64,000 nucleotides of DNA. Source: Bacilli bacterium. GTDB taxonomy: Bacteria; Bacillota_I; Bacilli_A; RF39; UBA660. The stretch lies in contig JAFQCG010000003.1 in NCBI GenBank assembly GCA_017416535.1, forward strand, positions 132,911 through 196,910. The letters run 5' to 3'. A program made the position numbers and the translations under genes. This document shows positions 7,267-49,148 of the stretch, piece by piece. Each line of letters starts with the position of its first letter. Position 1 is the stretch's first letter. Under the pieces are notes generated by a model that was not told where the DNA came from, did no database searches, and worked only from the letters and a program-made list of their open reading frames with translations.

Positions 7267-8961
7267 GTGATAAAATTGATCCAAGATAAAATAAATAATT
7301 TAAAAATAACTGATACTAAAATAAGAAAAATAATAAAAAATATTGAAGAAAATATTATAAAATTATCAAAAGATACAAATAGAGATAATCAACTTAAAAT
7401 AATAGATATAATTTCAAATGAACGTAATAAATATTTAACATATTATTGGGCAAGTTATATTGGATATTTAAAAAATATAAAAGATGAAAAGTATCTTACA
7501 TCAGAAAAAATAATTGCTAAATACGAAGGTGACTATAATAATGCAGTATATAAGTTTTTTGAAACAATAGATAGTATAAAAGAAAAGGATCATATTATAA
7601 AAGTATATGGTAAACGATTTATAGATTTAGCTCATAATCAAAAACTATTATATTCAAACAGCACAGAACTATTTGAAGAAGAATTATCACTTCGCAAGGA
7701 ATATAGAAAGATACTTAATAATATAAGAATAAATTTTAACAATGAAGAAATATCTCTTGTGAAATTAAATAAATATCTTACAGATGATAATGAACAAATA
7801 AGAAAAGAAGCATATGACAAAAGATATGAAGCATTATTAAAAGTTAGTGATGAATTAGGTAATATATTTATAAAATTACTAAAAGTAAGAAAGAAAATCG
7901 CATTGTCAACTAACTTTAAAAATTATACAGACTATAGTTTTATTAAAATGAATAGAGTAGATTACAAAGAAAATGATTTAAGAATGTTTAAGGATATAAT
8001 TCTAACATTCTTTGTTCCATTAAAAGAAAAACTAAAAGAAACACAAACAAAAAGATTACATGAAAAGAAATTATCATATTATAATGCATCATATTTATTT
8101 AATGATGGAAATGCCAAAACAAAATATAATATTGAAGAAATTTGCAATAAATTAAATGATATATTCAAAAAATTAAATACTGAATTTAGTGAACTATTTA
8201 CAATGATGTTAGAAAATAACTTAATTGATTTAGAAGAAAGAGAAAATAAAAGTGCTGGTGGAATTACAACATTCCTACCAGATTTCCAAGTTCCAGTATT
8301 TATAAAAAGATATATGGATAATTCAAATAATTTTATTGCGATTACTCATGAATTTGGACACTCACTTCAATTATATTTAAATAGGAATAAAACACTTCAT
8401 GAAAACAGATGGCCAACATTTGATATATGTGAAATACATTCAACTACAATGGAATTATTAGTAAGTGATTATACAAATGAAATATATGAAGAAGACTATA
8501 AAAAACATTTAATTACTCACTATACAAATTTAATTGAAATATTAGTAAGAACAGCTGCTGTTGATGATTTTCAAAGTAAAATATATTCAGAAGATAACTT
8601 AACCATCGAAGATGTAAATAATATTTGGAAAGATATATATAAGCAGTATTATCCAACAAATAATTATGATTTAGATTATTTTAAAAAAGGTATTTTATGG
8701 CAAGCAGATATAAATAGAATAGATGATCCATTTTATGGTATAGATTATGCACTTGCGGAAATATATGCTTTATCATTTTATCAAAAGTACTCAAATAATA
8801 AAGAGAAGGGGATTAAAGACTTTATATCATTCTGTAAAGATGGCGGAGAAATATCATTTAAAGAAATATCTAAAAAGTATAATTTATTAAATCCATTTAC
8901 AGAAAAAGACTTAATATCTATAGCAAAATTCTTTGAAGAAAAACTAGAAAAAATTTTATAA
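7267..8961 (+). CDS. pepF: M3B oligoendopeptidase F
   Basis: 564 aa. HEFGHSLQ HEXXH zinc motif in a PepF-like context. Confidence 0.8.
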   Translation: MIKLIQDKINNLKITDTKIRKIIKNIEENIIKLSKDTNRDNQLKIIDIISNERNKYLTYYWASYIGYLKNIKDEKYLTSEKIIAKYEGDYNNAVYKFFETIDSIKEKDHIIKVYGKRFIDLAHNQKLLYSNSTELFEEELSLRKEYRKILNNIRINFNNEEISLVKLNKYLTDDNEQIRKEAYDKRYEALLKVSDELGNIFIKLLKVRKKIALSTNFKNYTDYSFIKMNRVDYKENDLRMFKDIILTFFVPLKEKLKETQTKRLHEKKLSYYNASYLFNDGNAKTKYNIEEICNKLNDIFKKLNTEFSELFTMMLENNLIDLEERENKSAGGITTFLPDFQVPVFIKRYMDNSNNFIAITHEFGHSLQLYLNRNKTLHENRWPTFDICEIHSTTMELLVSDYTNEIYEEDYKKHLITHYTNLIEILVRTAAVDDFQSKIYSEDNLTIEDVNNIWKDIYKQYYPTNNYDLDYFKKGILWQADINRIDDPFYGIDYALAEIYALSFYQKYSNNKEKGIKDFISFCKDGGEISFKEISKKYNLLNPFTEKDLISIAKFFEEKLEKIL

Positions 8962-11502: not shown

Positions 11503-12435
11503 ATGCCAATTATTGAAAAAGAAGAACTAGCAAGTAATTTAATAAATGGAAGATATATTCATTATACAGATTGTTATAGTTTTCAAAGACTATATCCTTT
11601 TTGCAATGAAAATGTATCTGGTTATCTAGATTTTTTAGATTTAGATGGTAAATCATTACTAACAGTTGGTTCATCTGCAGATCAAACAATTTGCGCAGTC
11701 ACAAGAGGATGTAGAGATATAACTGTACTAGATATTTGTCCTTTTACAGAAGAATACTTTTATTTGAAAAAATCAGGAATACTAACTTTACCTAAAGAAG
11801 ATTTTGAAAGAGTTCTATTTTACGATGACTACCCACGTACATTTAAACAAAATAAAGACCCTTTTGCCTTGGAAAAATATCCAAGACTACTTCAACAGTT
11901 AAAGAAAGAAAGCGAATCTTCTCATAATTTTTGGTTATCTTTAACAAAAAGTTACAGTGGAGAAATGATAAGAAAAAATCTATTTACAAATGACGAGGAA
12001 AATCCTAAAGTTACAAGATATCTTACGGACTATTTAAAAAGTGAAAGTGCATACTACGAAACAAGGAAAAAATTAAAAGATATAAGACCAACATTTATGA
12101 TTGAAAATATAACACATAGGATTCCTGTAGAAAGAAAATTTGATAACATTGTTCTTTCTAATCTAACAACTTATTTATCTCATGAACAAATAGCTGAATT
12201 ATTAAAAAATCTTATTCCTCATCTTGAAGAAGGAGGAAGGATTATTCTTGGATATATGTATAGAACAAATGAATTTTCTATTTATTGCAAAGAATGGGAT
12301 GATATATATAATATCGAAAGAATAAAATCAATTGACCCAAATATTGAACTAAAAACATTTAGGGGAGTAAAAGGTGTCTTACACGACATGGACAGTATGA
12401 AAGATGCTGTATATGTTTATCAAAAGAAAAAATAA
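11503..12435 (+). CDS. hypothetical protein, class I SAM-methyltransferase-like fold (DUF3419/BtaA-like?)
   Basis: 310 aa. LLTVGSSADQ ... VLDICP ... FDNIVLSNL ... GGRIILGY resemble MTase motifs I, II, IV. Confidence 0.3.
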   Translation: MPIIEKEELASNLINGRYIHYTDCYSFQRLYPFCNENVSGYLDFLDLDGKSLLTVGSSADQTICAVTRGCRDITVLDICPFTEEYFYLKKSGILTLPKEDFERVLFYDDYPRTFKQNKDPFALEKYPRLLQQLKKESESSHNFWLSLTKSYSGEMIRKNLFTNDEENPKVTRYLTDYLKSESAYYETRKKLKDIRPTFMIENITHRIPVERKFDNIVLSNLTTYLSHEQIAELLKNLIPHLEEGGRIILGYMYRTNEFSIYCKEWDDIYNIERIKSIDPNIELKTFRGVKGVLHDMDSMKDAVYVYQKKK

Positions 12436-12467
12436 TTTATGATATAATACATAATAGAGGTGATTAT

Positions 12468-13682
12468 ATGAAACATATAGTAATAGTAGGTGGAGGAGCA
12501 TCTGGATTAATTTCTGCAATACATGCTAAAACTTCAAATAATAAAGTTACAGTTTTAGAAAGAAATTCTTCTTGTGGTAAGAAAATTCTTGCAACAGGAA
12601 ATGGAAAGTGTAATTATTGGAATATAGATCAAAATATAAAACATTATCATAGTAACAATGAAGAATTATTAGAACAAATAATCACTAAAGAAATGCAAGA
12701 TAAAGTAATTAATTTCTTTAATAGTCTTGGAATAGTACCAAAAATAAAAAATGGTTATTATTATCCATTTTCAAATCAAGCAACAACAATAAAAAATGCT
12801 TTACTAAATGAAGTAAAGAAAAAAGATATTGAAATAAGACAAGACTTTTTAGTAGAAAGTATTGAAAAAGAAGATAATCACTTTATAATTAAAAGTTCAA
12901 ATGAAATTATAAAAGCTGACAAAGTAATTATCGCAACAGGATCTTGTGCATCACCAAAAACAGGATCAGATGGAATTGGATATAAACTATTAAAAAGATT
13001 ATCTCATACAGTAATTGAACCTAAACCAGCATTAGTTCAATTAAAAACAACAGGTAATTTCTTAAAAGAATGGGCAGGAATAAGAACTGATGTAAAAGTA
13101 TCATTATATGAAAATGATAAATTAATAAAAGAAGAATCTGGAGAAATTCAATTAACTGATTATGGAATAAGTGGTATATGTGTATTTAATTTAAGTAGAT
13201 ATGTATCAATTGGATTAGAAAAAAATTTAAATGAAGAAGTAATGATTAACTTCCTACCATTTATAGAAAAAAATCCATATGAATATCTAACAAATTTATT
13301 AAAAAATAATTATTCAGTAAAAACACAATTGGAAAACATATTAAATAATAAATTAGTAACAGTTATCTTAAATAAAACTAATATTGATGAAAACAAATCA
13401 TTTAATAATCTAAGAGAAGATGAAAAAGTAAGATTAATAAATAACTTAATCTCTTTTAAAGTAAAAGTAATTGGAACAAACTCTTTTGATCAAGCTCAAG
13501 TATGTTCTGGAGGTATACCTCTAACTGAAATAGATCTAACTACAATGGAATCTAAACTTGTTAAAGGTTTATATATAGTTGGAGAATTACTTGATGTAGA
13601 TGGTGATTGTGGTGGTTATAACTTAGGTTTTGCATGGATGAGCGGTATTAAAGCAGGAATTGGATGTAGTGAAAATGATTAG
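12468..13682 (+). CDS. BaiN/HI0933-family NAD(P)/FAD-dependent oxidoreductase
   Basis: N-terminal IVIVGGGASGL Rossmann motif; 404 aa HI0933-like architecture. Confidence 0.75.
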   Translation: MKHIVIVGGGASGLISAIHAKTSNNKVTVLERNSSCGKKILATGNGKCNYWNIDQNIKHYHSNNEELLEQIITKEMQDKVINFFNSLGIVPKIKNGYYYPFSNQATTIKNALLNEVKKKDIEIRQDFLVESIEKEDNHFIIKSSNEIIKADKVIIATGSCASPKTGSDGIGYKLLKRLSHTVIEPKPALVQLKTTGNFLKEWAGIRTDVKVSLYENDKLIKEESGEIQLTDYGISGICVFNLSRYVSIGLEKNLNEEVMINFLPFIEKNPYEYLTNLLKNNYSVKTQLENILNNKLVTVILNKTNIDENKSFNNLREDEKVRLINNLISFKVKVIGTNSFDQAQVCSGGIPLTEIDLTTMESKLVKGLYIVGELLDVDGDCGGYNLGFAWMSGIKAGIGCSEND

Positions 13683-18195: not shown

Positions 18196-18789
18196 GTGTA
18201 TTCATTAATGTATTATAAGAATTTATATAGAAAAGAAATGATTAAAAACTTTATAATAATAGGAATTATTTTATTTGTTGCAGTATTCTCAACATATCAT
18301 ATATATTATGCATTTAGTAATACTGAGGAAATTGATTATAGTTCAACTTCTTTAGATATTACATTTCATGAAGAAACAGGAGAAGAATTAGATATAACAA
18401 AAATAACTCCATTAACAGACTCTGTAGGATTATCATCAAAAGGACACTCTATTACAATAACAAATAATCTAACAGAAGAAGTTAATTATAAGATAAAAAT
18501 AGTTGATAACGAAAAGAAAATGCAAGAACAAAATTGTGTAGGAATAACAATTCCACGTGAAGAAATCAGAGTATCAATTAAACAGTCTGGAGAAGAAACA
18601 GAAGTGTACAAATTATCTGATTTAGAAGATGGTGTAATTCTTTCGACAAGAGCAAAAGCTTTAGAAGAAGAAAAGTACACAATTAGAATATGGGTAAATA
18701 ATGAAACATCTCTACCAAGTGGAAGTAAACATCATTACCATGGACTAATTCAAGTTGTTGAAAATGATACAACTGTAGCAGTTAGATAG
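18196..18789 (+). CDS. hypothetical N-terminally membrane-anchored protein
   Basis: 197 aa, one N-terminal TM helix; the start may be the internal Met (MIKNF). Confidence 0.35.
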   Translation: MYSLMYYKNLYRKEMIKNFIIIGIILFVAVFSTYHIYYAFSNTEEIDYSSTSLDITFHEETGEELDITKITPLTDSVGLSSKGHSITITNNLTEEVNYKIKIVDNEKKMQEQNCVGITIPREEIRVSIKQSGEETEVYKLSDLEDGVILSTRAKALEEEKYTIRIWVNNETSLPSGSKHHYHGLIQVVENDTTVAVR

Positions 18790-19290: not shown

Positions 19291-19500
19291 ATGATGAAAT
19301 TAGACATTCAATTATTCGCAGTTCCTTTCCGTAAGGTTTCAAAAACAAGAAAGAGAATGAGAAGAAGTCACAATGCTATGGAAGTTCCTGGTATGGCAAA
19401 ATGTCCTAGTTGTGGTGAAATGGTAAAACCACATAGAGTTTGTCCAAAATGTGGAAACTACAAAGGAAATAAAGTAGTAGAAGTAAAAGAAGCAGAATAA
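19291..19500 (+). CDS. rpmF: 50S ribosomal protein L32 with a 9-residue N-terminal propeptide ([15 protein letters not shown])
   Basis: [20 protein letters not shown] ... CPSCGE ... CPKCG is canonical L32. RBS aaagaggag 7 nt before the first ATG; no alternative start downstream. Confidence 0.85.
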
Positions 19501-19513
19501 TGCTTCTTTTTTT
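19487..19513 (+). terminator. Rho-independent terminator
   Basis: aagaagcag-aataa-tgcttctt plus T-run. Confidence 0.6.
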
Positions 19514-19583
19514 GTTATATTCTAGACAACAAATTAATAAAATGATAAACTTAAATAGATAGTATAAAAGATAGGTGAAGTAA

Positions 19584-21782
19584 ATGAAAACCAGAAAAAA
19601 TCAAAAAGGATTTACCTTAGTAGAATTGTTAGTTGCTATATCAATATTAGGTCTTATTATGGTAATCGCAATACCTCAAATAAGTAATATTCAAACAAGT
19701 AACAAAAATACTAAATATAAGAAATATGCAGAGTCAATGATAACGAGTGCCAAACTATATACAGATTCATATACTCAAGATATGTTTGGAAATAATCAAA
19801 GCGGATGTGTAGATATTCCATATGAAGATATGAAAGACAAAGACTTACTAAAGGATTTTAAACTAGAAGGTTCAACTTGTAACCATCCAGGTAAGACTTT
19901 TATTCGTGTAAGAAAAGCCAACGACCACTATCTATATCAATCATCAATTTATTGTACAGATAAATCCGGAAAAGTTGTTTATGATAAACAATTATCTGCA
20001 ACAGGATGTGATGATAAACCAGATACAAAAGGCCCTACAATGACAATAGATGCTGCACCAACTGCATGGTCTAAAGGTGTAGGTGTAAAAGCAACAGTAA
20101 GAATTTGGGACGAATACGGAATGCTTGAAAATATAAAAATCAAACTTGTTTGGACAAAAGAAGGAGCAGAAGTAGGTACACCAGTAGAATATAATTTTAA
20201 AAATAAAAGATATGCAGCATCAACTTCATCAACTGCATTAACATATTCAATAGAAGTGCCTCAAAATGCAACAGGTCAATATATTTTAAAAGCAATACCA
20301 GTAGATGTCAGAGATTCAGTTGGAAATTATCAAAAGAATACTGTTCAATCAGGAGCATTTAAATTAGATAATACAAAACCAAGAGTAACAGGAACAACAA
20401 ATGACAGTAATAGTCAATGGACAAATAAAGATGTAACTATTACAGCAACAGGTGCAGATGATCATTCTGGAGTAAAACAAATTTATTATTACTATTCTGC
20501 AGATAATAAACTAAAAGATTGGAATGAAGATAATAAAGAATCAGTTAAAGGAATTTGGTCAGCTCAAAGAAATAATGAAGCGTTTATAATTGTAGAAGAT
20601 GCAGTAGGAAATTTCTCAGAACCAGTATCTGCAGGACATATAAAAATCGACAAAACAAAACCAACTGTAGGTACAGTTACAAATGATAGTGATAGTAAAT
20701 GGGTAAATAGAAATGTAGTTATTACAGCAACAGCCTCAGATACAGGTGGATCTAAGTTAGAAGGAATATATTATTACTATAATGATGATTCAACAAATAG
20801 AAATGACTGGGACTCAGGTAGTACAATATCTTCTGTAACCGGAACATGGGGAGCAGAAAGAAACAATACAGTATCAATTATTGCTAAAGATAATGCTGGT
20901 AATGTATCAGATGCAGCATCAGCTGGTTCAGTTAAAATAGATAAAACAAAACCGGTAATTAGTAGCATTTCAAATCCAAAAAACAATACTCCTACAGTTC
21001 CAGGGCTAAAAGTAACTTTAACTGGAGGAGATTCAGGAACATACCAATCAGGAATTGCTAAATGGAGATATCATTATCCAAATCAAGACTGGTCTGATAT
21101 AAGTAATTCAAACTATTCTCCATATGTAGATACATTTACAGCGCTAAGATCGGCAACAACAACATATTACAGTTTATGTGATATAGCGGGAAATTGTTCA
21201 GATGCATCAACAACAATTGTACACATTGTATCAGCATGTTCTTCAACTACAACAACTTGGTCAGGAACATGGACAACATGTACAAAAAAATGTGGAACTG
21301 GAACGCAAACTCAATCAGGTACAAAATATAGTACTTACACAGGTGAAAATTGTGGAACAACAAGTAAATCACAAAATTGTGAAACACAAGAATGTTGTAG
21401 TAAAGTAACGTATACGGATGGAGATAAATGTAGTGCTGATTGTGGTGGAGGAACAAAAAACAGACTAGCTTATTCATATTATGATGGTTCAAGATGTTCT
21501 TCCAAAGACACTGATACAGGAGGAGCTGCATGTAATACCCACACTTGTGGACCTCCATCACATACACATAAAACATCATTATTAGGAGATGTTTTACATA
21601 AGTGTGGACATCATTTATCATGTGGTACAACTCACTCAACAGCACACTGGGGATATTGTGGAGTATGTTATAACTATGGTAAAGTTTATCGTTCTGACAC
21701 GTACTCGCATTGTCCAGGAAAGAACCTAGATGGATGTAAATGGTGGAATACTTCATATCCAACATCTGTAAAAGGTTATTAA
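19584..21782 (+). CDS. giant type IV pilin-like protein (ComGC-type class III signal peptide) with Ig-like repeats and a C-terminal TSP1-like Cys/His-rich region
   Basis: MKTRKNQKG|FTLVELLVAISILGLIMVIAIP (G|F cleavage site, Glu+5). Two tandem approximately 100-aa repeats marked by KIDKTKP / KLDNTKP. C-terminal TWSGTWTTCTKKCGTGTQTQ. Confidence 0.65.
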   Translation: MKTRKNQKGFTLVELLVAISILGLIMVIAIPQISNIQTSNKNTKYKKYAESMITSAKLYTDSYTQDMFGNNQSGCVDIPYEDMKDKDLLKDFKLEGSTCNHPGKTFIRVRKANDHYLYQSSIYCTDKSGKVVYDKQLSATGCDDKPDTKGPTMTIDAAPTAWSKGVGVKATVRIWDEYGMLENIKIKLVWTKEGAEVGTPVEYNFKNKRYAASTSSTALTYSIEVPQNATGQYILKAIPVDVRDSVGNYQKNTVQSGAFKLDNTKPRVTGTTNDSNSQWTNKDVTITATGADDHSGVKQIYYYYSADNKLKDWNEDNKESVKGIWSAQRNNEAFIIVEDAVGNFSEPVSAGHIKIDKTKPTVGTVTNDSDSKWVNRNVVITATASDTGGSKLEGIYYYYNDDSTNRNDWDSGSTISSVTGTWGAERNNTVSIIAKDNAGNVSDAASAGSVKIDKTKPVISSISNPKNNTPTVPGLKVTLTGGDSGTYQSGIAKWRYHYPNQDWSDISNSNYSPYVDTFTALRSATTTYYSLCDIAGNCSDASTTIVHIVSACSSTTTTWSGTWTTCTKKCGTGTQTQSGTKYSTYTGENCGTTSKSQNCETQECCSKVTYTDGDKCSADCGGGTKNRLAYSYYDGSRCSSKDTDTGGAACNTHTCGPPSHTHKTSLLGDVLHKCGHHLSCGTTHSTAHWGYCGVCYNYGKVYRSDTYSHCPGKNLDGCKWWNTSYPTSVKGY

Positions 21783-21797
21783 AAGAGGTGAATACAT

Positions 21798-22262
21798 ATG
21801 AAAAAAGCAAATATATTTGTAATAATTGTATTAATTCTAGGTATTGGATTAATCGCAGCTGGAATGTTTGTAAAAGTAGATAAAAAAGGAGAAGAAAGAG
21901 ATCCCCTAGAAAATAAAGAAGGATATATCTATGGAGATAAATATATTGATGATTATAAAGAAATTGGTTCTAAAGCTCTAACTAAAGATCAAATATTTGA
22001 TAAAATTAAGTACACACAAAATCACTTATCAACTACATCAGATGAATTCGCAACATTTACTTCAGTAATTTATAACCAAACAGGAGAAAATATAAAATTA
22101 CAAAAATTAGAAATTGACTTCTACGATGCAGAAAAAAAACTAATCGCAACAATGCCAAGTGAAATAGAAAATCTTTCCCCAGATGCAAGCACTGTAATAT
22201 TTGGAATAGTTGAAAAAAATCTTACAAAAGCAGATTCATTTATCGTAAGACAAGTACAATAA
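21798..22262 (+). CDS. small N-terminally membrane-anchored protein, partner of the pilin-like gene
   Basis: 154 aa, single N-terminal TM. Starts 13 nt after the pilin stop and is followed by a terminator. Confidence 0.4.
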   Translation: MKKANIFVIIVLILGIGLIAAGMFVKVDKKGEERDPLENKEGYIYGDKYIDDYKEIGSKALTKDQIFDKIKYTQNHLSTTSDEFATFTSVIYNQTGENIKLQKLEIDFYDAEKKLIATMPSEIENLSPDASTVIFGIVEKNLTKADSFIVRQVQ

Positions 22263-27873: not shown

Positions 27874-29100
27874 ATGGAACATAATAGAAAACAAAAATTA
27901 TTAATGATTATTGCATTGGTAGTAGGAATTGCATCTTTATCTGTAGGTTTCGCAGCATTTTCAACAACACTAAATATTTCATCAAGTGCAAGTGTAACAC
28001 CAAGTAGTGCGGATTTTGCAGTAAAGTTTTCAACTAGTCAAACTAGTTTAGTAACAGATGCAGTAGTACATTCAAGTAAAACAACCGGTATAACTACAAC
28101 AAATGGAACAATAGTAAATAGTGTTTCACCAACTCTTTCAAATTTATCAGCAAGTTTTACTAGTCCAGGACAATATGTAGAATATACTGTATATGCAAGA
28201 AATGAAGGAGAGTATACTGCTTACTTAAATAATATTAATTATATAGGAGATAAAACATGTATTACATCATCTGGTACAACAGAATCTTTAGTTCAAAGTG
28301 CATGTAATTCAATAAATATAACAGTAACAATTGAAAATACAACATATGATGATACAACACCAATTTCTTCTCATGCCTTAGCAAAAGGAGCAAGTGAAAC
28401 AATAAAGGTAAGATTAGAATATGCAGAAAATGGAACAGCAGTAGATGGATCATTTAAAATAACATTCCCAAGCATTTCACTAGTTTACTCAACAATAGAT
28501 AATTCATCAATGGATGGAAAAGTAGTAAGAGTAGTAAGTGGAGATATAAATACACCTGGTAGTGTAGTTGCGATAGGAAATGAGCAATTCTATGTATTTG
28601 ACAAAGAAAATGGAAATGTAAAATTACTTTCTATGTATAATCTAAGAGTTGGAAACAGTGTAGACGAAGAATGGAACGTAACACCACTAACAAACACAAC
28701 TGGAATACAAGATAGTGAAGCAAGAGGATATGTAGATGGAGAATTTCCATTTATAGGAACAACAGCATTTTCAAATACAAATTCAACTTACTCGGGAAGT
28801 ATAGTAGAGGGATACGTAAATAACTATAAAACATATTTAACAAACATGGGAGTAGATATCTCATCAGCAAGATTAATAAAAAAGGCAGAACTTGAAAAAT
28901 TAGGATGCAACGAAGACGATTATAGTTGCAGTGACGCTCCAAGTTGGGTTTACTCAACTTCATATTGGTCGGGGTCGGCCCGTGATGCTGACTTTGTGTG
29001 GAGTGTGATTAGTTATGCGGGCTTTGTCGACAGCGACTCTAACCGTGATGACGACGTCGGCGTGCGTCCAGTTATAGAAATCTCTGAATCTATTTTCTAG
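27874..29100 (+). CDS. secreted protein with a TasA/SipW-cognate-like signal peptide and a C-terminal DUF1566 (Lcl C-terminal)-like module
   Basis: N-terminus LSVGFAAFSTTLNISS. C-terminus YWSGSARDADFVWSVISYAGFVD ... GVRPVIEI. The C-terminal 130 nt are markedly GC-rich. Confidence 0.45.
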   Translation: MEHNRKQKLLMIIALVVGIASLSVGFAAFSTTLNISSSASVTPSSADFAVKFSTSQTSLVTDAVVHSSKTTGITTTNGTIVNSVSPTLSNLSASFTSPGQYVEYTVYARNEGEYTAYLNNINYIGDKTCITSSGTTESLVQSACNSINITVTIENTTYDDTTPISSHALAKGASETIKVRLEYAENGTAVDGSFKITFPSISLVYSTIDNSSMDGKVVRVVSGDINTPGSVVAIGNEQFYVFDKENGNVKLLSMYNLRVGNSVDEEWNVTPLTNTTGIQDSEARGYVDGEFPFIGTTAFSNTNSTYSGSIVEGYVNNYKTYLTNMGVDISSARLIKKAELEKLGCNEDDYSCSDAPSWVYSTSYWSGSARDADFVWSVISYAGFVDSDSNRDDDVGVRPVIEISESIF

Positions 29101-32225: not shown

Positions 32226-32254
32226 ATCCCCACATATTGAAAAGGGGGATAAAA

Positions 32255-33229
32255 ATGGAGTTTATTGTACTAGATTTAACAACAGCAACCGAAGAACAAA
32301 TAAAAGCTGCAATTGACTGTAACAATAGAACATCTCGTTTAATGCAATCAGAAATCGATAAATTACGTCGTGTAGCTGAAACTGTCAAAAAAAGTAAAAA
32401 ACCAATTATTATTCAAGTAGAACCTCAAGAAGAAAAGAAAGAAACAGAAATAATTGATGAAGACTTTGAAAATGAGGTTGAATATTATTTATCACAACTA
32501 AAAGAATTAAAAAATTCTAATATTGATGATGAGTTTGAAACATCAATACCATCTCGTATGCACTATCAGTATGAAAGAATCTTGACTCGTTTAAAACTAG
32601 AATCAATAAGACTTATTAAAGAAATTAAAGATTTGTTAGCTGAGGAAGGCTTATCTTTAGAAGATATGAATGCTTTTAAAGAAGAATTAGATTTAGAACT
32701 AAAGAAAATCGAACTAATTAATAAAGCATTAGAACCAGTAAAAGAAGAAGAGCAAGCCTCTACTAAAAAAGATAATAAATTAATATTTGTACCAACATCA
32801 GGTGGAGATATAAGAGTACTAGATGAAATTGATTCTATACCATACGAATATTACGATCGTTTCCTAGGACTATTCCAATCAATAAAAGATGGTACATTTA
32901 AAAATGTTCAAAGATTCACAGGTAATAATGAACTTAATGGTTTATGTGAAGTAAAAGACTTTAAAGTACGTGTAATTTTTGTAAGATTAACAAAAGATTC
33001 TTATGCAATAATATCAGCGTTTACTAAAAAGTCTGATAATGATAAAGCTTATCGTGCTGCAGTAATAAAAAAATATAATGACTTCCAGATAGCAGAATCA
33101 TCATTAAGAAAAAATATACAAAATGAAGAATTCTTAGAACTACATAAGACATATGAAACAGAATTATTTGAAAAGTTATCACCTACAACTAAAACACCTG
33201 TTTTAAAGAAGAAAGGTGGTGAAGTATAA
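32255..33229 (+). CDS. coiled-coil/acidic N-terminal region fused to a C-terminal Gp49/HigB-like (RelE/ParE superfamily) toxin domain
   Basis: C-terminal TFKNVQRFTGNNELNGLCEVKDFKVRVIFVRLTKDSYAIISAFTKKSDNDKAYRAAVIKKYNDF matches the Gp49 pattern L.G..LWELR...YRV.Y.....IVLLHAF.KK. TAATG overlap with the next gene. Confidence 0.45.
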   Translation: MEFIVLDLTTATEEQIKAAIDCNNRTSRLMQSEIDKLRRVAETVKKSKKPIIIQVEPQEEKKETEIIDEDFENEVEYYLSQLKELKNSNIDDEFETSIPSRMHYQYERILTRLKLESIRLIKEIKDLLAEEGLSLEDMNAFKEELDLELKKIELINKALEPVKEEEQASTKKDNKLIFVPTSGGDIRVLDEIDSIPYEYYDRFLGLFQSIKDGTFKNVQRFTGNNELNGLCEVKDFKVRVIFVRLTKDSYAIISAFTKKSDNDKAYRAAVIKKYNDFQIAESSLRKNIQNEEFLELHKTYETELFEKLSPTTKTPVLKKKGGEV

Positions 33230-35133
33230 TGATAAATATCTTAAGAATGATAAATAAAGAAAAAATAAGAATTGATCAAGAACTATTAGAAGAAGATGAA
33301 AGATTTGAATTTTATCAAGAATTTTTCAAAAAAAATAAAACATCAACATTAACTGATGTAATAAATTTAAATCATTCTGATTTAGCACTTGCAATTATCA
33401 TTAATATGGACCCAGAACTTTCGGTTGAAGAAGTTAAAGAAGTAGTTTATGGTAACAGAGATATTTTTGAAAATTTAAACTTCGATTCTATAAGTGAACT
33501 AGTAAGATTAATAGATGGTCTAGCTAATGACCCAGAACTTTATTGTGATATTAAAAAAGCTGCTATAACTAAAGCGGATAAGAAATTTACAGCTAGATTC
33601 AAAAAAGAAAGTCAAATGGCGAGTATGATTCGTATTCTTACAGATTCAATGGACACAACTCCAGAAATGTTCTTTGATTTTGTAGATATGTTTATTGAAC
33701 ACAGTGAAGGATTTGTAATTGCCTTATCAACAGTTGCAACATTAAAAGATATCAAAGAAGAAAAAGAATTCCATTATCAAATGATTCAAGATATCTGTGA
33801 AGAAGAAGGTGCAAAAGTTAAACGAAAAGTTCAAGATAAATGGGTATCAGAAATGGTAAGAGATGATTATAAAATTGCTAATTTATTAAAACCAGTAAAT
33901 GATGCAAGAAATGAATATCATCATCTAGATCAAGAACAAAGAAATAGAAAAAGAAATTTATCTAAAACAAAAGTTGTTTATGAATCATTAGAAACAAACC
34001 TTTATAAAGCCATTCAATCAGGGGAAATAAGAAATGTTGAAACATTACTAAAAAAAGTACCTAATGATGAAATTAGAATTGCTATATTAAAACTTGTATA
34101 TACACACAATCAAAAAATATACAAAAACTTATCTGAAGAATATAAAATATTAGCTGCTAATGATGCTTCTCACTATCGAGTTCTACTTGCAAAATATGGT
34201 ATATCTCCAGAAGATTATGAAGTAGGAACTGTAATGGAAAATTCAATTGAAGATTTAGAAAATATATTAAAATTACTAACTAAACTTTCAATAACTAATC
34301 CAACAGAAATTCTTAGTATTATTCAAAATACAAATTTAGAAACAATTACTAATATTCAAGGATTAACTGAACGAGGTATAATAACATCTCAATTATTAGT
34401 AGAACATCAAAGTATTCTAAATCCAAATTCAAAAGAATATGAAGACTTCATGAGAAATTTAAGTTTAATTAATAAAAAGAAATTAAATCCACATCATTTT
34501 ACAACAACAGAAGATGTATTAATAACAAATCATGAAGTATTAACAAATAGTTTAAGCACACTAGAAGATTACGACTTATTATCTAATATAAAATCAAAAA
34601 TGAATTTAACTTTCTTAAAAAACATAGATTTAAAAGAATCAATTGATCTATTATTAGAATTAGGTTATGAATCAAATTTAGAAGAATGTTTAGACTTATT
34701 AAACTATAAAGATAAATTTGATAGATTAAAAGTCTTAAAAGAATTAAATATACCTATAGGAAGCACACAAGAATTAATAGGAATATTAACAACAGATAAA
34801 TTCTATGTACCAGATAAAGATATATCTAAGTATGTATATAATGCATCTAACTATAATTTGCCTAGAGGAATTGTAGAAGTAGAAGAACCAAAGAAAAAAG
34901 TATCAGATGTATCAAGGTTATCAGAATTTTCAAATACATCTCGTACATATAGTTTTGATGGAGTATTAATTTCCAAAAATAGAGTACATAGAAATTTATC
35001 TCATATACTAGCAACAGGAAAACCAACAGATAGATTAGTATATGCAATATTAAAAGGAGCAACATTAAATGATGAAGAAGTATCAAAAGTAAAAACATCA
35101 CTTGCTTCACAAAAACAAATAATAAAAAAATAA
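33229..35133 (+). CDS. large (634 aa) uncharacterised, predicted all-alpha protein, translationally coupled to the upstream gene
   Basis: Start ATG shares a nucleotide with the upstream TAA. No recognisable catalytic or HTH motif. Confidence 0.45.
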   Translation: MINILRMINKEKIRIDQELLEEDERFEFYQEFFKKNKTSTLTDVINLNHSDLALAIIINMDPELSVEEVKEVVYGNRDIFENLNFDSISELVRLIDGLANDPELYCDIKKAAITKADKKFTARFKKESQMASMIRILTDSMDTTPEMFFDFVDMFIEHSEGFVIALSTVATLKDIKEEKEFHYQMIQDICEEEGAKVKRKVQDKWVSEMVRDDYKIANLLKPVNDARNEYHHLDQEQRNRKRNLSKTKVVYESLETNLYKAIQSGEIRNVETLLKKVPNDEIRIAILKLVYTHNQKIYKNLSEEYKILAANDASHYRVLLAKYGISPEDYEVGTVMENSIEDLENILKLLTKLSITNPTEILSIIQNTNLETITNIQGLTERGIITSQLLVEHQSILNPNSKEYEDFMRNLSLINKKKLNPHHFTTTEDVLITNHEVLTNSLSTLEDYDLLSNIKSKMNLTFLKNIDLKESIDLLLELGYESNLEECLDLLNYKDKFDRLKVLKELNIPIGSTQELIGILTTDKFYVPDKDISKYVYNASNYNLPRGIVEVEEPKKKVSDVSRLSEFSNTSRTYSFDGVLISKNRVHRNLSHILATGKPTDRLVYAILKGATLNDEEVSKVKTSLASQKQIIKK

Positions 35134-46822: not shown

Positions 46823-48361
46823 ATGAAATTTATCTTGATGCCGTTTATAGCAGTTTACCATGTTGTCAGTGCAATTATGTCTGCTCCTGGAAAACTTTTA
46901 CAAAAAGCGGAGGATAAAGCCTTTGAATCCAAAGACAAAAAACAAAAACAAAAAGAAGAAAAAGAATTAGCAGCATTAAATGCATCTAATTCACAATTAG
47001 CTCAAACCAATGCATCAGTAGCAGTTGCTCAACCAGAACAATCACAAGCAGTAGCGGCACAACAGGAAGCGGCTGCAGGAGCAACAACAGAAGGTGACGT
47101 AAAACTAAGTGATATGGCTTCTCAAGATGAAGCACAAGCAAAGAAAGAACGTCCAATGAAATCATATCGTTATACGATATTAAACTCTTTTGGAAAAAAA
47201 GAAGTTGGAACATTTGATGCAGAAGAAGAACAAGACGTTAGAAATTATTTATTAGCACAAGATTATAAGATACTAGAAGTAAAAGAACGTAGTAAATATG
47301 ATATTGATTTAAATATTGGTAATAAGATTAGTGCAGAAGATTTAGCTTTCTCACTTACTCAATTATCAACTTATATTAAATCAGGTATCCCACTAGTAGA
47401 TGGTGTTAAAATCCTTGCAAAACAAACAAAGAAAGCAGTTCTAAAAAAGAGTTTTAACCAATTAGTATATGAATTACTACGAGGAGAAAGTTTCTCAAAT
47501 GCCATGATGGCTCAAGGAGAAGTATATCCAAAACTTTTAATAAACATGGTAAAAACAGCAGAAATGACTGGAGACTTACCATCAATACTAGATGACATGT
47601 CTGAATATTATACATCTATGGAAAGAACAAAAAAACAAATGAAATCAGCGATGACATATCCAATAGTTGTATTAACAATTGCCTTTGCGGTATTAATATT
47701 CATGTTAGTATACTTAGTTCCACAATTCTCTGGAATGTATGCCGATAATGATGCAACAATGCCAGCACTAACATTAGCTATTCTTGATATTAGTTCATTC
47801 ATTCAAACGAACTGGTTAATATTAATACTATGCGCAGTAGCATTAGTTGTAACATTTATGTATCTATTTAAACATGTTATAGGATTTAAAACTGCAGTAC
47901 AAACATTCCTAATGCACGTACCTGTAGTAAAAGATATTATCATCTATAATGAAATTGCAAACTTTACAAAAACATTTGCATCACTAATAAACCATGGTGT
48001 ATTCATTACAGATAGTATGGAAATCCTATCAAAAATTACAGACAATGAAATTTATAAGAAAATAATTAATAAAACATTAGTCAACCTAGGTAAAGGAGAT
48101 ACAATCTCTATGGCCTTTAAAGGTGAGTGGGCAATTCCAATTGTTGCTTATGAAATGTTAGTTACAGGTGAAACAACAGGTCAATTAGGATTAATGATGG
48201 AAAAAGTTGCAGACCACTTCCAAAATCTACACAAAAGTGTTATTGATCAAATGAAGAGTTTACTAGAACCAATTCTTATTTGTTTCTTAGCAGTAATAGT
48301 TGGTATTATCTTAATCTCTATCATTCAACCAATGTTTGGTATTTACCAATCAGTACAATAA
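46823..48361 (+). CDS. type II secretion/type IV pilus platform protein (GspF/PilC/ComGB-like) with a 111-aa N-terminal extension
   Basis: Duplicated GspF domains, three TM segments. The canonical N-terminus MKSYRYTIL begins at 47156, but the strong RBS (aagaggagg) serves the ATG at 46823. Confidence 0.75.
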   Translation: MKFILMPFIAVYHVVSAIMSAPGKLLQKAEDKAFESKDKKQKQKEEKELAALNASNSQLAQTNASVAVAQPEQSQAVAAQQEAAAGATTEGDVKLSDMASQDEAQAKKERPMKSYRYTILNSFGKKEVGTFDAEEEQDVRNYLLAQDYKILEVKERSKYDIDLNIGNKISAEDLAFSLTQLSTYIKSGIPLVDGVKILAKQTKKAVLKKSFNQLVYELLRGESFSNAMMAQGEVYPKLLINMVKTAEMTGDLPSILDDMSEYYTSMERTKKQMKSAMTYPIVVLTIAFAVLIFMLVYLVPQFSGMYADNDATMPALTLAILDISSFIQTNWLILILCAVALVVTFMYLFKHVIGFKTAVQTFLMHVPVVKDIIIYNEIANFTKTFASLINHGVFITDSMEILSKITDNEIYKKIINKTLVNLGKGDTISMAFKGEWAIPIVAYEMLVTGETTGQLGLMMEKVADHFQNLHKSVIDQMKSLLEPILICFLAVIVGIILISIIQPMFGIYQSVQ

Positions 48362-48380
48362 GAATATAAGGAGGATAATT

Positions 48381-49148
48381 ATGAATATACTATATTTAAT
48401 TATCTTTTTTATTTTAGGATTACATATTGGATCATTTCTTACAGTAATTGGTCTACGTCTTCCTAAAAAAGAAAATTTTACAACAACAAGATCACATTGC
48501 GATTCCTGCGGTCATATATTAGGGGCAACAGAAATGATTCCAATTTTATCATATATACTTCAAAAAGGTCGTTGTCGTCATTGCGGAGCAAAAGTAGATG
48601 TATTATCAACATATGTAGAATTCTTTACAGGAGCACTATTCGCAGTTGCATTCTATGCTTTTGGATTCTCATATGAATTACTAATTGCCTTAGGCATTGT
48701 GTCATTACTTATGATTGTTGTAGTAAGTGATATAACATATTTAATAATACCAGATGAAGTATTAGCATTTTTCTCAGTATACTTCCTAATAATTCAAATA
48801 CTAAATTTAGGATTACTAGGTGCAGGAAAGCAACTTTTATCAGGTTTATTCCTATTTGGAGTAATGTATCTAATTATGATATTAGGTAATAAGATGTTGA
48901 AAAAAGAAAGTCTAGGTGGAGGAGATATAAAAATGATGTTTGTCTTCGGCTTAGTATTAGATCCACTACTTGGAGCCTTATCAATCTTTTTAGCAAGTGT
49001 AATTGCCTTACCAATTTCATTAATATTATTAAAACACCAAAGAGAAAGAGTTATTCCTTTTGGACCATTCCTACTAATTGCATTAACATTTATATATTTT
49101 GCTGGAATAACTACACCATTAGTTTTAAGTTGGTTACAAATAAAGTAA
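48381..49148 (+). CDS. prepilin peptidase (A24 family, PilD/ComC-like)
   Basis: Tetracysteine CDSCGH ... CRHCG, 8 TM segments. Start at 48381 after RBS aaggagg. Confidence 0.8.
   Translation: MNILYLIIFFILGLHIGSFLTVIGLRLPKKENFTTTRSHCDSCGHILGATEMIPILSYILQKGRCRHCGAKVDVLSTYVEFFTGALFAVAFYAFGFSYELLIALGIVSLLMIVVVSDITYLIIPDEVLAFFSVYFLIIQILNLGLLGAGKQLLSGLFLFGVMYLIMILGNKMLKKESLGGGDIKMMFVFGLVLDPLLGALSIFLASVIALPISLILLKHQRERVIPFGPFLLIALTFIYFAGITTPLVLSWLQIK

Follow-up and report, generated by a model that had tools for sequence, protein, structure and literature searches.

Type IV pili are thought to acquire functions through modules grafted onto their pilins, and thrombospondin type-1 repeats (TSRs) serve adhesion in the matrix proteins of animals, in complement properdin and in the invasion proteins of malaria parasites. 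Modular pilins such as Streptococcus sanguinis PilB serve as adhesins (PMC8179133); PilB consists of a pilin module and a vWA domain, and PilC of the same species consists of a pilin module and a lectin domain (Raynaud et al. 2021, PMC8179133). In ETEC CofB, a pilin is followed by a beta-repeat and a beta-sandwich, and the protein forms a trimer at the tip (PMC8179133). A pilin joined to TSRs has been catalogued once before and never studied: Dataset S1 of PMC8179133 holds one protein annotated IPR012902-IPR000884-IPR000884, that is, a pilin with two TSP1 repeats, and a search of the searchable literature returned no TSR-pilin that had been characterised or discussed. The architecture belongs to the known modular-pilin kind.

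Here, we describe a protein of this architecture from a low-GC gut bacterium, as yet uncultured, that belongs to the class Bacilli. Its gene lies between rpmF and addB, amid housekeeping genes, in a stretch of 64,000 nucleotides (64 kb) that was analysed as a whole and is hereafter called the window. The features to which the text refers are as follows.

19485-19510, + strand: terminator-like hairpin 3' of rpmF (pattern match; consensus scan and direct reading)
19523-19551, + strand: promoter-like site (pattern match; consensus scan and direct reading)
19573-19578, + strand: AGGTGA ribosome-binding site, 5 nt before the ATG (pattern match; consensus scan and direct reading)
19584-21782, + strand: open reading frame of the modular type IV pilin-like protein, 732 aa, stop codon included (ORF with Pfam and NCBIfam matches)
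19593-19673, + strand: aa 4-30, comprising a class III (prepilin) signal peptide and the hydrophobic helix alpha1-N (Pfam N_methyl, NCBIfam TIGR02532)
19674-20033, + strand: aa 31-150, the pilin head module, conserved in about 120 relatives; its four cysteines are at 75, 99, 124 and 142
20034-21221, + strand: stalk of four beta-sandwich/Ig-like modules in tandem, each about 95-110 aa long (internal BLAST)
21237-21395, + strand: TSR unit 1, aa 552-604 (family repeat HMM, 48 bits, E about 1e-14)
21396-21548, + strand: TSR unit 2, aa 605-655 (family repeat HMM, 47 bits, E about 1e-14)
21549-21779, + strand: His/Cys-rich cap, aa 656-732, 77 aa (alignments A2 and A4)
21798-22262, + strand: N-terminally membrane-anchored protein, 154 aa, 15 nt downstream of the pilin-like ORF
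46823-48361, + strand: platform protein of type IV filaments, T2SSF/PilC-like, 512 aa (matched in two stretches by Pfam T2SSF, E=9.6e-48)
48336-49148, + strand: prepilin peptidase (A24_N_bact and Peptidase_A24; Pfam 7.9e-29 and 4.9e-11)
59210-61465, + strand: paralogous modular pilin-like gene, 751 aa

The pilin-like character of the protein, already proposed in the initial annotation, is borne out by two profiles that both exceed their cut-offs: Pfam N_methyl (PF07963; 38.4 bits against 21.2) and NCBIfam TIGR02532 (30.1 against 16.3). The N-terminus reads MKTRKNQKG/FTLVELLVAISILGLIMVIAIP, a basic leader that ends in Gly at -1 and is followed by Phe at +1, Glu at +5 and about 20 hydrophobic residues, as in a class III signal peptide. 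With N_methyl, Ig-like modules and two TSRs, the protein falls within the modular pilin definition of Raynaud et al. (2021). As in PilB and PilC, an N-terminal IPR012902/N_methyl module precedes the non-pilus part, which in those two proteins the filament displays for adhesion, and the host is a monoderm; unlike in PilB and PilC, four Ig-like modules part the pilin head from the cargo, the cargo consists of TSRs and an undescribed cap, and the gene stands outside any pilus operon. CofB, too, is a bulky minor pilin in which additional beta-rich domains project from the head at the filament tip (PMC8179133), but it has neither TSRs nor a His/Cys cap and comes from a type IVb system of diderms; the likeness drawn here is one of architecture.

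The stalk modules span aa 151-262, 263-357, 358-453 and 454-546, with K[IL]D[KN]TKP motifs at their boundaries. Internal BLAST aligned modules B and C at 48% identity (E=2.6e-25) and matched both of them to module D at about 1e-4. NCBIfam gave a weak OmpL47-type match in the stalk region, and the proteins of relatives carry Big_3_3, Big_13 and PF24893.

The region beyond the stalk had been described from three peptides as a TSR-like repeat with a second, degenerate copy and a His/Cys-rich tail. All three are found in the plus-strand ORF 19584-21782: CSSTTTTWSGTWTTCTKKCGTGTQTQSGT corresponds to aa 552-580, CSADCGGGTKNRLAYSYYDGSRCSS to aa 616-640 and the His/Cys tail, as quoted, to aa 653-696; nucleotides 21230-21782 encode aa 549 to the stop codon. 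Residues 546-732 hold 18 of the 24 Cys and 10 of the 15 His of the protein. In unit 1, the cysteines are at 552, 566, 570, 590, 599 and 604, with W559, W563 and a CTKKCGTG motif; when the 64 kb window was translated in all six frames, a regular expression for this six-Cys framework found unit 1 as its single match. The degenerate copy is real, as its HMM score indicates, and has cysteines at 605, 616, 620, 638, 650 and 655 and the motif CSADCG; it represents a Trp-less 'Y-x-D-G' subtype that recurs in many relatives.

The claim that the first repeat follows the TSR consensus almost exactly needs to be divided. The six-Cys framework with its C-S/T-x-x-C-G motif is present in both units, whereas the Trp motif is not as claimed, reading W-S-G-T-W (W-x-x-x-W) instead of W-S-x-W. 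The Trp ladder (W-x-x-W(-x-x-W)) interleaved with an R-x-R Arg ladder is degenerate in both units: in unit 1, W563 alone occupies a canonical Trp-layer position, and the Arg positions are taken by Q577 and G579; unit 2 has no Trp anywhere, Y610 and G613 standing where the Trp residues would be, while R627 fills the Arg-layer position. Eukaryotic TSRs tolerate Gln and Lys substitutions in the ladder (PMC2173040). In a gapless alignment to F-spondin TSR4, the strand-B Cys is absent and there is an extra N-terminal Cys; judged by sequence, the cysteine framework of both units is of the F-spondin type, which PMC2173040 defines as "group 2". The disulfides would be expected to follow that pattern, with predicted pairs 552-590, 566-599 and 570-604 in unit 1 and 605-638, 616-650 and 620-655 in unit 2, although their formation is not a given in an anaerobic gut Firmicute.

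The Pfam TSP_1 search proposed in the initial annotation failed on the protein's own sequence, which scored 10.2 bits against a cut-off of 21.6. Its units also remained below threshold for TSP1_spondin (18.3-21.4 bits, cut-off 41; unit 1 E=3e-4) and for TSP1_ADAMTS (10-17.7 bits, cut-off 23.8, a weak match over aa 614-655). Sister repeats are recognised far better: among 61 units of the family, 43 match Pfam TSP1_spondin and 38 match TSP_1, with 43 of 61 at E<=0.01 and a best value of 2.6e-12, and relatives carry precomputed PF00090/PF19028 matches. A family profile of these 61 repeat units, both query units included, was compared with a library of solved structures. Its 55 matches were TSR proteins without exception, among them the TSRs of human thrombospondin-1 (E=2.2e-15) and F-spondin (5.4e-7). 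The five-unit array of the relative P0068 matches metazoan TSR proteins, such as a ctenophore coadhesin-like protein (E=6e-35). A single-unit profile (A1) found no match in a collection of 5.8 billion proteins because the domain is too short for so large a database.

The predicted fold agrees with these matches. In AlphaFold2 (AF2) models, unit 1 forms three strands at pLDDT 91-95, and unit 2 reaches pLDDT 87-97. The top Foldseek matches of the model were properdin (6rus_A, 4.5e-5), thrombospondin-1 TSR2-3 (1lsl, 7.9e-4) and the TSRs of semaphorin-5A; the two-TSR tandem of thrombospondin-1 was aligned over about 118 columns, and single TSRs could be superposed to about 3 A across some 50 residues, BAI1 (7r84_D, TM 0.70) being one example. 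The modelling is clearly positive for the elongated three-stranded antiparallel TSR fold that had been put forward as a check, so that the two-part refutation set by the initial annotation comes out split, with Pfam scores under threshold and the expected fold. The family-profile matches to solved structures, the Pfam matches of sister repeats and the predicted fold together establish both units as true TSR homologues.

Compared with the repeats of F-spondin and thrombospondin-1 (PF19028, PF00090; 1vex, 1szl, 1lsl), the units share the length of about 53 aa, the CSxxCG motif, six Cys and the three-stranded elongated fold, which is predicted here, and, with F-spondin in particular, the N-terminal strand-A Cys and the absence of a strand-B Cys. 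They differ in being bacterial, in a Trp ladder cut down to a single in-register residue in unit 1 and to nothing in unit 2, in the Gln that replaces the main Arg of unit 1, in not being basic and in falling below the Pfam thresholds. No C-mannosylation or O-fucosylation systems are known that would decorate them, and these compact repeats are open to study without eukaryotic glycosylation. The apicomplexan proteins TRAP, CSP and MIC2, which the family profile also matched, are a further parallel, as they place microbial surface TSRs on an apparatus for motility or attachment and use them in adhesion; they differ as eukaryotic, glideosome-linked type I membrane proteins that have a single TSR beside a vWA domain and no relation to pilins. 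The statement that TSRs are rare in bacteria holds only in part, since within this pilin family they are common, 60 of 121 proteins bearing one to seven units, and since a pilin with two TSP1 repeats had already been catalogued.

The C-terminal 77 residues form a small His/Cys-rich domain that has not been described before. It is fused to the last TSR cysteine without a linker (C655-GPP-x-H-x-H), and H660, H684, C692, C695, C710 and C718 are invariant, C692-x-x-C695 being a CxxC pair. Position 662 is His in 14 of 15 aligned caps and Cys in one; a His/Cys swap is typical of metal ligands. The description of this region as a His/Cys-dense tail that could bind metal needs qualifying, in that conservation extends to only three of its eight His (H660, H662, H684), and the remaining five are lineage-specific. 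With those three and four invariant Cys, metal binding by the cap is plausible. Among 1.84 billion representative proteins, the cap occurs only at the C-terminus of pilin+TSR proteins, always straight after a TSR. Three of the ten matches of the cap search (P0123, P0126 and P0127) were repetitive or of low complexity, with short 'GYCGICY/AGYAYFGT'-like strings, and were discarded by eye. The cap has no match in Pfam, and its profile retrieved nothing significant from PDB sequences, where it reached E=0.27 for a CCHC zinc finger (1fu9) and 1.5 for a shark VNAR. AF2 modelled it as a long beta-hairpin with a short helix at CGVCY, with only moderate confidence (pLDDT 78 when folded alone, 45-83 inside a longer model). 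Its fold had no match in PDB or BFVD, and a likeness of the HxH motif to the HxH repeats with which phage tail-fibre tips bind metal was dropped for want of a viral fold match.

On balance, we favour the interpretation that the protein is a modular minor pilin or adhesin whose TSR-plus-cap end is distal and faces a ligand. The alpha1-N helix would serve as its anchor, either in the membrane or inside a type IV filament core; in a filament, a bulky minor pilin would most plausibly sit at the tip. A rod of four Ig-like modules would project from the pilin head and carry two Cys-stapled TSR modules and then the cap, held by its His and Cys residues. The TSRs may act as stiff, elongated spacers or as binding modules; the cap may itself be the tip that binds, or else a terminator stabilised by metal or by disulfides. 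With the TSR-plus-cap end distal and ligand-facing, the protein would most likely work as an adhesin; the pilus-tip location and the binding to host glycosaminoglycan, collagen or mucin that the initial annotation raised are hypotheses.

How the work is divided between TSRs and cap can be read differently. The TSRs could be rigid spacers only, with the cap as the sole ligand- or metal-binding element, a reading that we consider less likely than not. All modules are under purifying selection, and the cap is the most constrained (dN/dS 0.04-0.09, against 0.15-0.28 for the TSRs); this constraint, the variation of TSR copy number from one to seven among relatives, the invariably terminal position of the cap directly on the last TSR Cys and the loss of most of the Trp/Arg ladder from TSRs that are not basic would all fit a spacer. 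However, selection also maintains the TSRs, many TSR-bearing relatives end in other tails, unrelated or only weakly similar, and TSRs bind in every characterised eukaryotic protein (PMC2173040).

Two components of a type IV filament machinery are encoded elsewhere in the window. The prepilin peptidase shows CxxC...CxxC and, from its sequence, is the enzyme expected to cleave the pilin leader; the platform protein is extended at its N-terminus by about 110 aa of low complexity. The 751-aa paralog shares the signal peptide and head, has different Ig-type repeats, lacks TSRs and ends in another Cys-rich C-terminal region. Neither a T2SSE assembly ATPase nor a small major pilin was found within the 64 kb, and this, with the housekeeping surroundings, leaves incorporation into a filament an inference. 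Rather unlikely, in our estimate, is that the protein is no filament subunit at all but a surface display protein whose signal peptide only exports it and anchors it in the membrane, the Ig-like modules and TSRs forming a stalk of about 25-30 nm that takes the cap through the Gram-positive wall. This would suit a gene that stands alone among housekeeping genes, at two conserved chromosomal sites, with no ATPase or major pilin nearby; it would also suit the very large part beyond the pilin head (about 580 aa) and the presence of several paralogs per genome with different ends. Yet the N-terminus is that of a canonical polymerisation-competent pilin, with Glu5 and a full alpha1-N helix, the window encodes the platform protein and the prepilin peptidase, and comparably bulky minor pilins, PilB and CofB, do enter filaments (PMC8179133).

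Current ideas are not overturned by these findings; a known modular-pilin principle is extended into new territory. The locus adds a diversified family of herbivore-gut Bacilli with one to seven TSRs grafted on pilins, and, since TSRs are adhesion modules elsewhere, this family supplies candidate adhesins for never-cultured organisms as well as a small orphan His/Cys domain. A bolder proposal, which we regard as improbable, is that TSR arrays and cap constitute an unrecognised bacterial adhesion system: TSRs carried on pili would bind to receptors or glycans, either of the animal host or of eukaryotes in the gut, and the cap would be a new extracellular metal-binding recognition domain. If that were true, pilus-borne TSRs would work as TSRs do in animals and apicomplexan parasites, and the bacterial pool of group 2 TSRs would reopen the question of their origin, whether as a eukaryotic invention transferred to bacteria or the reverse.

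Very unlikely is outright host mimicry, in which the TSRs would engage CD36, TGF-beta latency complexes or, in the manner of properdin, complement C3b. The relatives do come from colon MAGs of goat and water deer, and the homology to thrombospondin-1 and properdin TSRs is clear in both sequence and fold; nevertheless, the residues that mediate such interactions (basic groove, WSxW/RxR ladder) are mostly replaced, our literature search found no supporting publication, and codon usage is fully host-like, so that there is no sign of recent transfer. The pI values of 7.8 for the first TSR and 6.7 for the second are near neutral; the TSRs are therefore not basic, a heparin-type basic groove is not indicated, and classic heparin/GAG-type binding is unsupported by their charge.

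The genomic setting bears on the authenticity of the sequence. GC in the TSR/cap region is 33-39%, against a window mean of 27.7%; GC3 of the gene is host-like (7-17%) and equals that of housekeeping genes, so the raised GC of the region reflects amino-acid composition. The identical 732-aa protein occurs on nine public contigs with unchanged neighbouring genes, and synteny around the gene is kept in the goat and water-deer colon MAGs; on GC3 and synteny, recent horizontal transfer and contamination are rejected. The view that the TSR resemblance arose by chance in a low-complexity tail rich in Cys, Thr and Gly, or that the region is a eukaryotic contaminant or an assembly chimera, for which the sub-threshold Pfam scores and the elevated GC might speak, is effectively refuted by a profile E-value of 2e-15 with TSR proteins alone matched, a confidently predicted TSR fold, a single unbroken ORF that opens with a bacterial prepilin signal, the same bacterial neighbours on all nine contigs and the GC3.

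The 154-aa anchored protein encoded just downstream, for which Pfam gave no match, is probably co-transcribed with the pilin-like gene. It is found at the same position beside the alleles P0001 and P0002, with 98% nucleotide identity, whereas the small anchored proteins at the equivalent place in relatives are unrelated to it; a single family for all such proteins downstream of pilin-like genes was rejected, the one match being weak (E=2e-4).

The same two alleles reveal how the modules vary. Against P0001, dS is about 0.9 from Ig-like module D to TSR unit 2 and about 0.05 elsewhere; against P0002, the pattern is the opposite. The alleles are domain-wise mosaics with cassette-like recombination between them, and their ends are swapped as cassettes, as expected of surface structures under ecological pressure.

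The protein encoded by the TSR-pilin gene is best read as a modular type IV pilin, as Raynaud et al. 2021 (PMC8179133) use the term. The encoded peptidase would process its pilin module, which would bear an Ig-like stalk, with the distal end, made up of two thrombospondin type-1 repeats (TSRs) and a His/Cys-rich cap, serving for attachment. The features on which this reading draws are as follows.

19584-21782, + strand: TSR-pilin ORF, 732 aa
21798-22262, + strand: 154-aa membrane protein gene, downstream of the TSR-pilin
46823-48361, + strand: T2SSF platform protein (E=9.6e-48)
48336-49148, + strand: prepilin peptidase, with CxxC...CxxC motifs
59210-61465, + strand: paralogous modular pilin-like gene, 751 aa

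All three peptides singled out in the initial annotation lie within the first of these ORFs, and the segment 21230-21782 that it described runs from aa 549 to the stop codon; 18 of the 24 Cys and 10 of the 15 His of the protein fall within aa 546-732. The gene appears to be genuine and independent: a terminator-like hairpin 3' of rpmF is followed by a promoter-like site, an AGGTGA ribosome-binding site lies 5 nt ahead of the ATG, and the identical protein occurs with the same gene neighbours on nine public contigs, of which one exceeds 1 Mb. The neighbours are housekeeping genes, and the order MYG1, 197-aa membrane protein, yceD, rpmF, TSR-pilin, 154-aa membrane protein, addB, addA is kept in 'Bacilli bacterium' MAGs from goat colon and water-deer colon and in another metagenomic contig. 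The 197-aa protein (18196-18789, +) is anchored in the membrane at its N-terminus and matches no Pfam family; its counterpart in comparison locus L006 is 54% identical and lies at the same place upstream of yceD-rpmF-pilin, and it is also present in L001, L002 and L004. Small proteins (~150-290 aa, anchored N-terminally, with no known domain) trail every pilin-like gene of the family, for example at 21798-22262 in the window and at 12185-12811 and 15299-15931 in L006; their sequences are mostly unrelated from locus to locus, and a partner or accessory role is conceivable. Elsewhere in the window, large ORFs at 7267-8961, 27874-29100 and 32237-35133 (+; 564, 408, 330 and 634 aa) have no significant Pfam family, the 330-aa ORF giving a weak Gp49-like match (E=6e-4).

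The TSR-like stretch spans aa 552-580 and its second copy aa 616-640, and when the six reading frames of the window were scanned with a regular expression of the six-Cys TSR framework, the first unit was the only match. By its own sequence the protein stays below the Pfam cut-offs, both for TSP1_spondin (cut-off 41 bits; 18.3 at full length, 21.4 for the unit on its own) and for TSP_1 (10.2 against 21.6). Despite this failure, the family context settles the question in favour of TSRs. Many of the 120 proteins listed among 363 homologues carry precomputed TSP_1, TSP1_spondin, TSP1_ADAMTS or TSP1_CCN matches, and a family HMM iterated from the obvious repeats found 150 units in 60 of 121 proteins (1-7 units each), the two query units scoring 48 and 47 bits. 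A profile of 61 distinct units, both query units among them, retrieved TSR proteins only from all PDB sequences: thrombospondin-1 (E=2.2e-15), F-spondin (5.4e-7), circumsporozoite protein, BAI1, semaphorin-5A, properdin, ADAMTS, C6, CCN3, TRAP and UNC5; taken individually, 43 of the 61 units match TSP1_spondin and 38 match TSP_1. A five-unit array in the related protein P0068 matches metazoan TSR proteins, such as a ctenophore coadhesin-like protein (E=6e-35). In the AlphaFold2 model of aa 547-732, both units have the expected strands at pLDDT 91-97, single TSRs superpose on it at ~3 A across ~50 residues, and Foldseek ranks properdin (4.5e-5), thrombospondin-1 TSR2-3 (7.9e-4) and semaphorin-5A TSR3-4 highest among PDB structures. 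The TSP_1 check proposed in the initial annotation thus failed on the protein's own score while the fold check came out TSR-like, and since only the two failures together, no HMM match and an unrelated fold, would refute the repeats, the claim of TSR-like C-terminal repeats holds, carried by the family profile and the predicted fold.

The bacterial units align with F-spondin TSR4 without gaps; in both, the Cys that would end strand B is missing and an extra one stands at the start of strand A, a pattern that defines 'group 2' of Tan et al. 2002 (PMC2173040). By homology, the disulfides of unit 1 would be 552-590, 566-599 and 570-604, and those of unit 2 the corresponding pairs. Both units have a degenerate Trp/Arg ladder: the W-S-x-W read previously was one residue off, the real motif of unit 1 being W-S-G-T-W, with Gln at the main Arg position, and unit 2 belongs to a recurrent Trp-less subtype, 'Y-x-D-G ... 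NR-x-AYS ... SGG-x-x-CNT'.

The tail (aa 656-732) adjoins the last TSR Cys with zero linker. The His/Cys density attributed to it is present, at aa 653-696, but among 15 related tails five of the His (672, 676, 677, 688, 709) are lineage-specific and H660 and H684 are invariant, as are P657, P658, G668, Y691, C692, C695, Y698, G699, C710, C718 and V729; position 662 is His in 14 of them and Cys in the remaining one. Neither a Pfam family nor a significant PDB sequence match was obtained for the tail, and fold searches of the PDB and BFVD matched nothing. Searched exhaustively with an HMM, 1.84 billion representative proteins gave ten matches, three of which were dismissed as repeat artefacts; the seven genuine ones are all prepilin-type proteins that carry the tail behind a TSR, at their very C-terminus. 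In a few other family tails only the motif's first half recurs (P0058, E=5e-7; weakly in P0004, P0112, P0047 and P0025). The AlphaFold2 model of the tail (pLDDT 78) pairs aa 664-677 with 683-692 in a long beta-hairpin and starts a short helix at C692-G-V-C695. As modelled, the CxxC at the helix N-terminus and the HxH at the hairpin base, together with the His-to-Cys swap at 662, would be typical of a small metal-stabilised domain; alternatively, the six Cys could all be oxidised to disulfides.

The two closest alleles, P0001 and P0002, are mosaic relative to the query. Against P0001, dS is low (0.03-0.07) in the head, in modules A-C of the stalk and in the tail, and reaches 0.93 in module D, 0.37 in TSR1 and 0.93 in TSR2; against P0002, it is 0.43-1.1 from the head through module D and 0.03-0.13 in TSR1, TSR2 and the tail. 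Such abutting blocks of ~0.9 and ~0.05 indicate cassette-like recombination inside the gene. Throughout, dN/dS is below 0.35 (TSRs 0.15-0.28, tail 0.04-0.09); the modules are thus functional, constrained and swapped as cassettes. That the TSRs are mere spacers and the cap is the sole active part, a view that overlaps with the modular-pilin reading, is possible though doubtful. The mosaic alleles (146-2347 in L008 and 157-2355 in L009, compared with 19584-21782 in the window) come from other samples, and the downstream 154-aa gene is ~98% identical in both.

Residues 4-30 form a canonical class III prepilin signal, KG|FTLVE and then a hydrophobic helix (Pfam N_methyl 38.4 bits, cut-off 21.2; TIGR02532 30.1, cut-off 16.3), followed by a head of ~120 aa with four Cys and four tandem beta-rich modules of ~95-110 aa, of which B and C share 48% identity (E=2.6e-25); Big_3_3, Big_13 and PF24893 are annotated in relatives. 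The platform and peptidase genes overlap, are flanked by tgt and a DnaB_2-domain gene, and have no ATPase or pilin genes adjoining, an unusual split layout of type IV filament genes (46823-49148, +); the platform protein has a low-complexity N-terminal extension of ~110 aa. Neither a T2SSE ATPase nor a small major pilin was found among the window ORFs scanned, and a non-polymerising, membrane-anchored display protein is an unlikely alternative, though less so than those considered below.

The attachment end of the modular pilin could target host mucus, plant fibre or other microbes, because relatives come from herbivore colon samples; rumen Firmicutes appear in PMC3672088 as a precedent for fibre adhesion via pili. 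A heparin-type basic groove is not indicated, since both TSR units are near neutral (pI 7.8 and 6.7). Mimicry of host TSR proteins is very improbable. Chance match or contamination deserves hardly any credence: GC3 in the TSRs and tail, 7-17%, equals the 10-14% of housekeeping genes, so that amino-acid composition, and not recent transfer or contamination, accounts for the raised overall GC of this region.

In their Dataset S1, Raynaud et al. catalogue a single IPR012902-IPR000884-IPR000884 protein, a pilin with two TSP1 repeats, which their main text does not mention (PMC8179133), and our full-text literature searches found no paper on TSR-bearing pilins; the fusion is thus catalogued but uncharacterised. 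We rate the TSR-pilin as belonging to the known modular-pilin kind. This analysis adds how large and varied the family is (1-7 TSRs in each protein), and further describes the Trp-less subtype, the group-2 cysteine framework, an orphan domain at the cap and cassette recombination among alleles.

Relatives have two or three pilin-like genes at the same two chromosomal sites. The paralog at 59210-61465 resembles the TSR-pilin in head and signal peptide, differs in its Cys-containing Ig-type (Big_3_3) repeats, and has no TSR and a different Cys-rich C-terminal end (...ILGRACTTKGVCAECRMYQ). It is followed by a 267-aa membrane-anchored protein of no known family (61478-62281), and its locus (Zip, PGM, UvrD-like helicase, pilin, MurJ-like) is syntenic with L007, which has three such genes. 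TSP_1 repeats also occur in other metagenomic proteins, in P0191 with a Flg_new/TIGR02543 repeat and in P0200 and P0205 with a polysaccharide deacetylase (PgdA/CDA1) domain; possibly they are additional TSR proteins of bacteria, separate from the pilin family.
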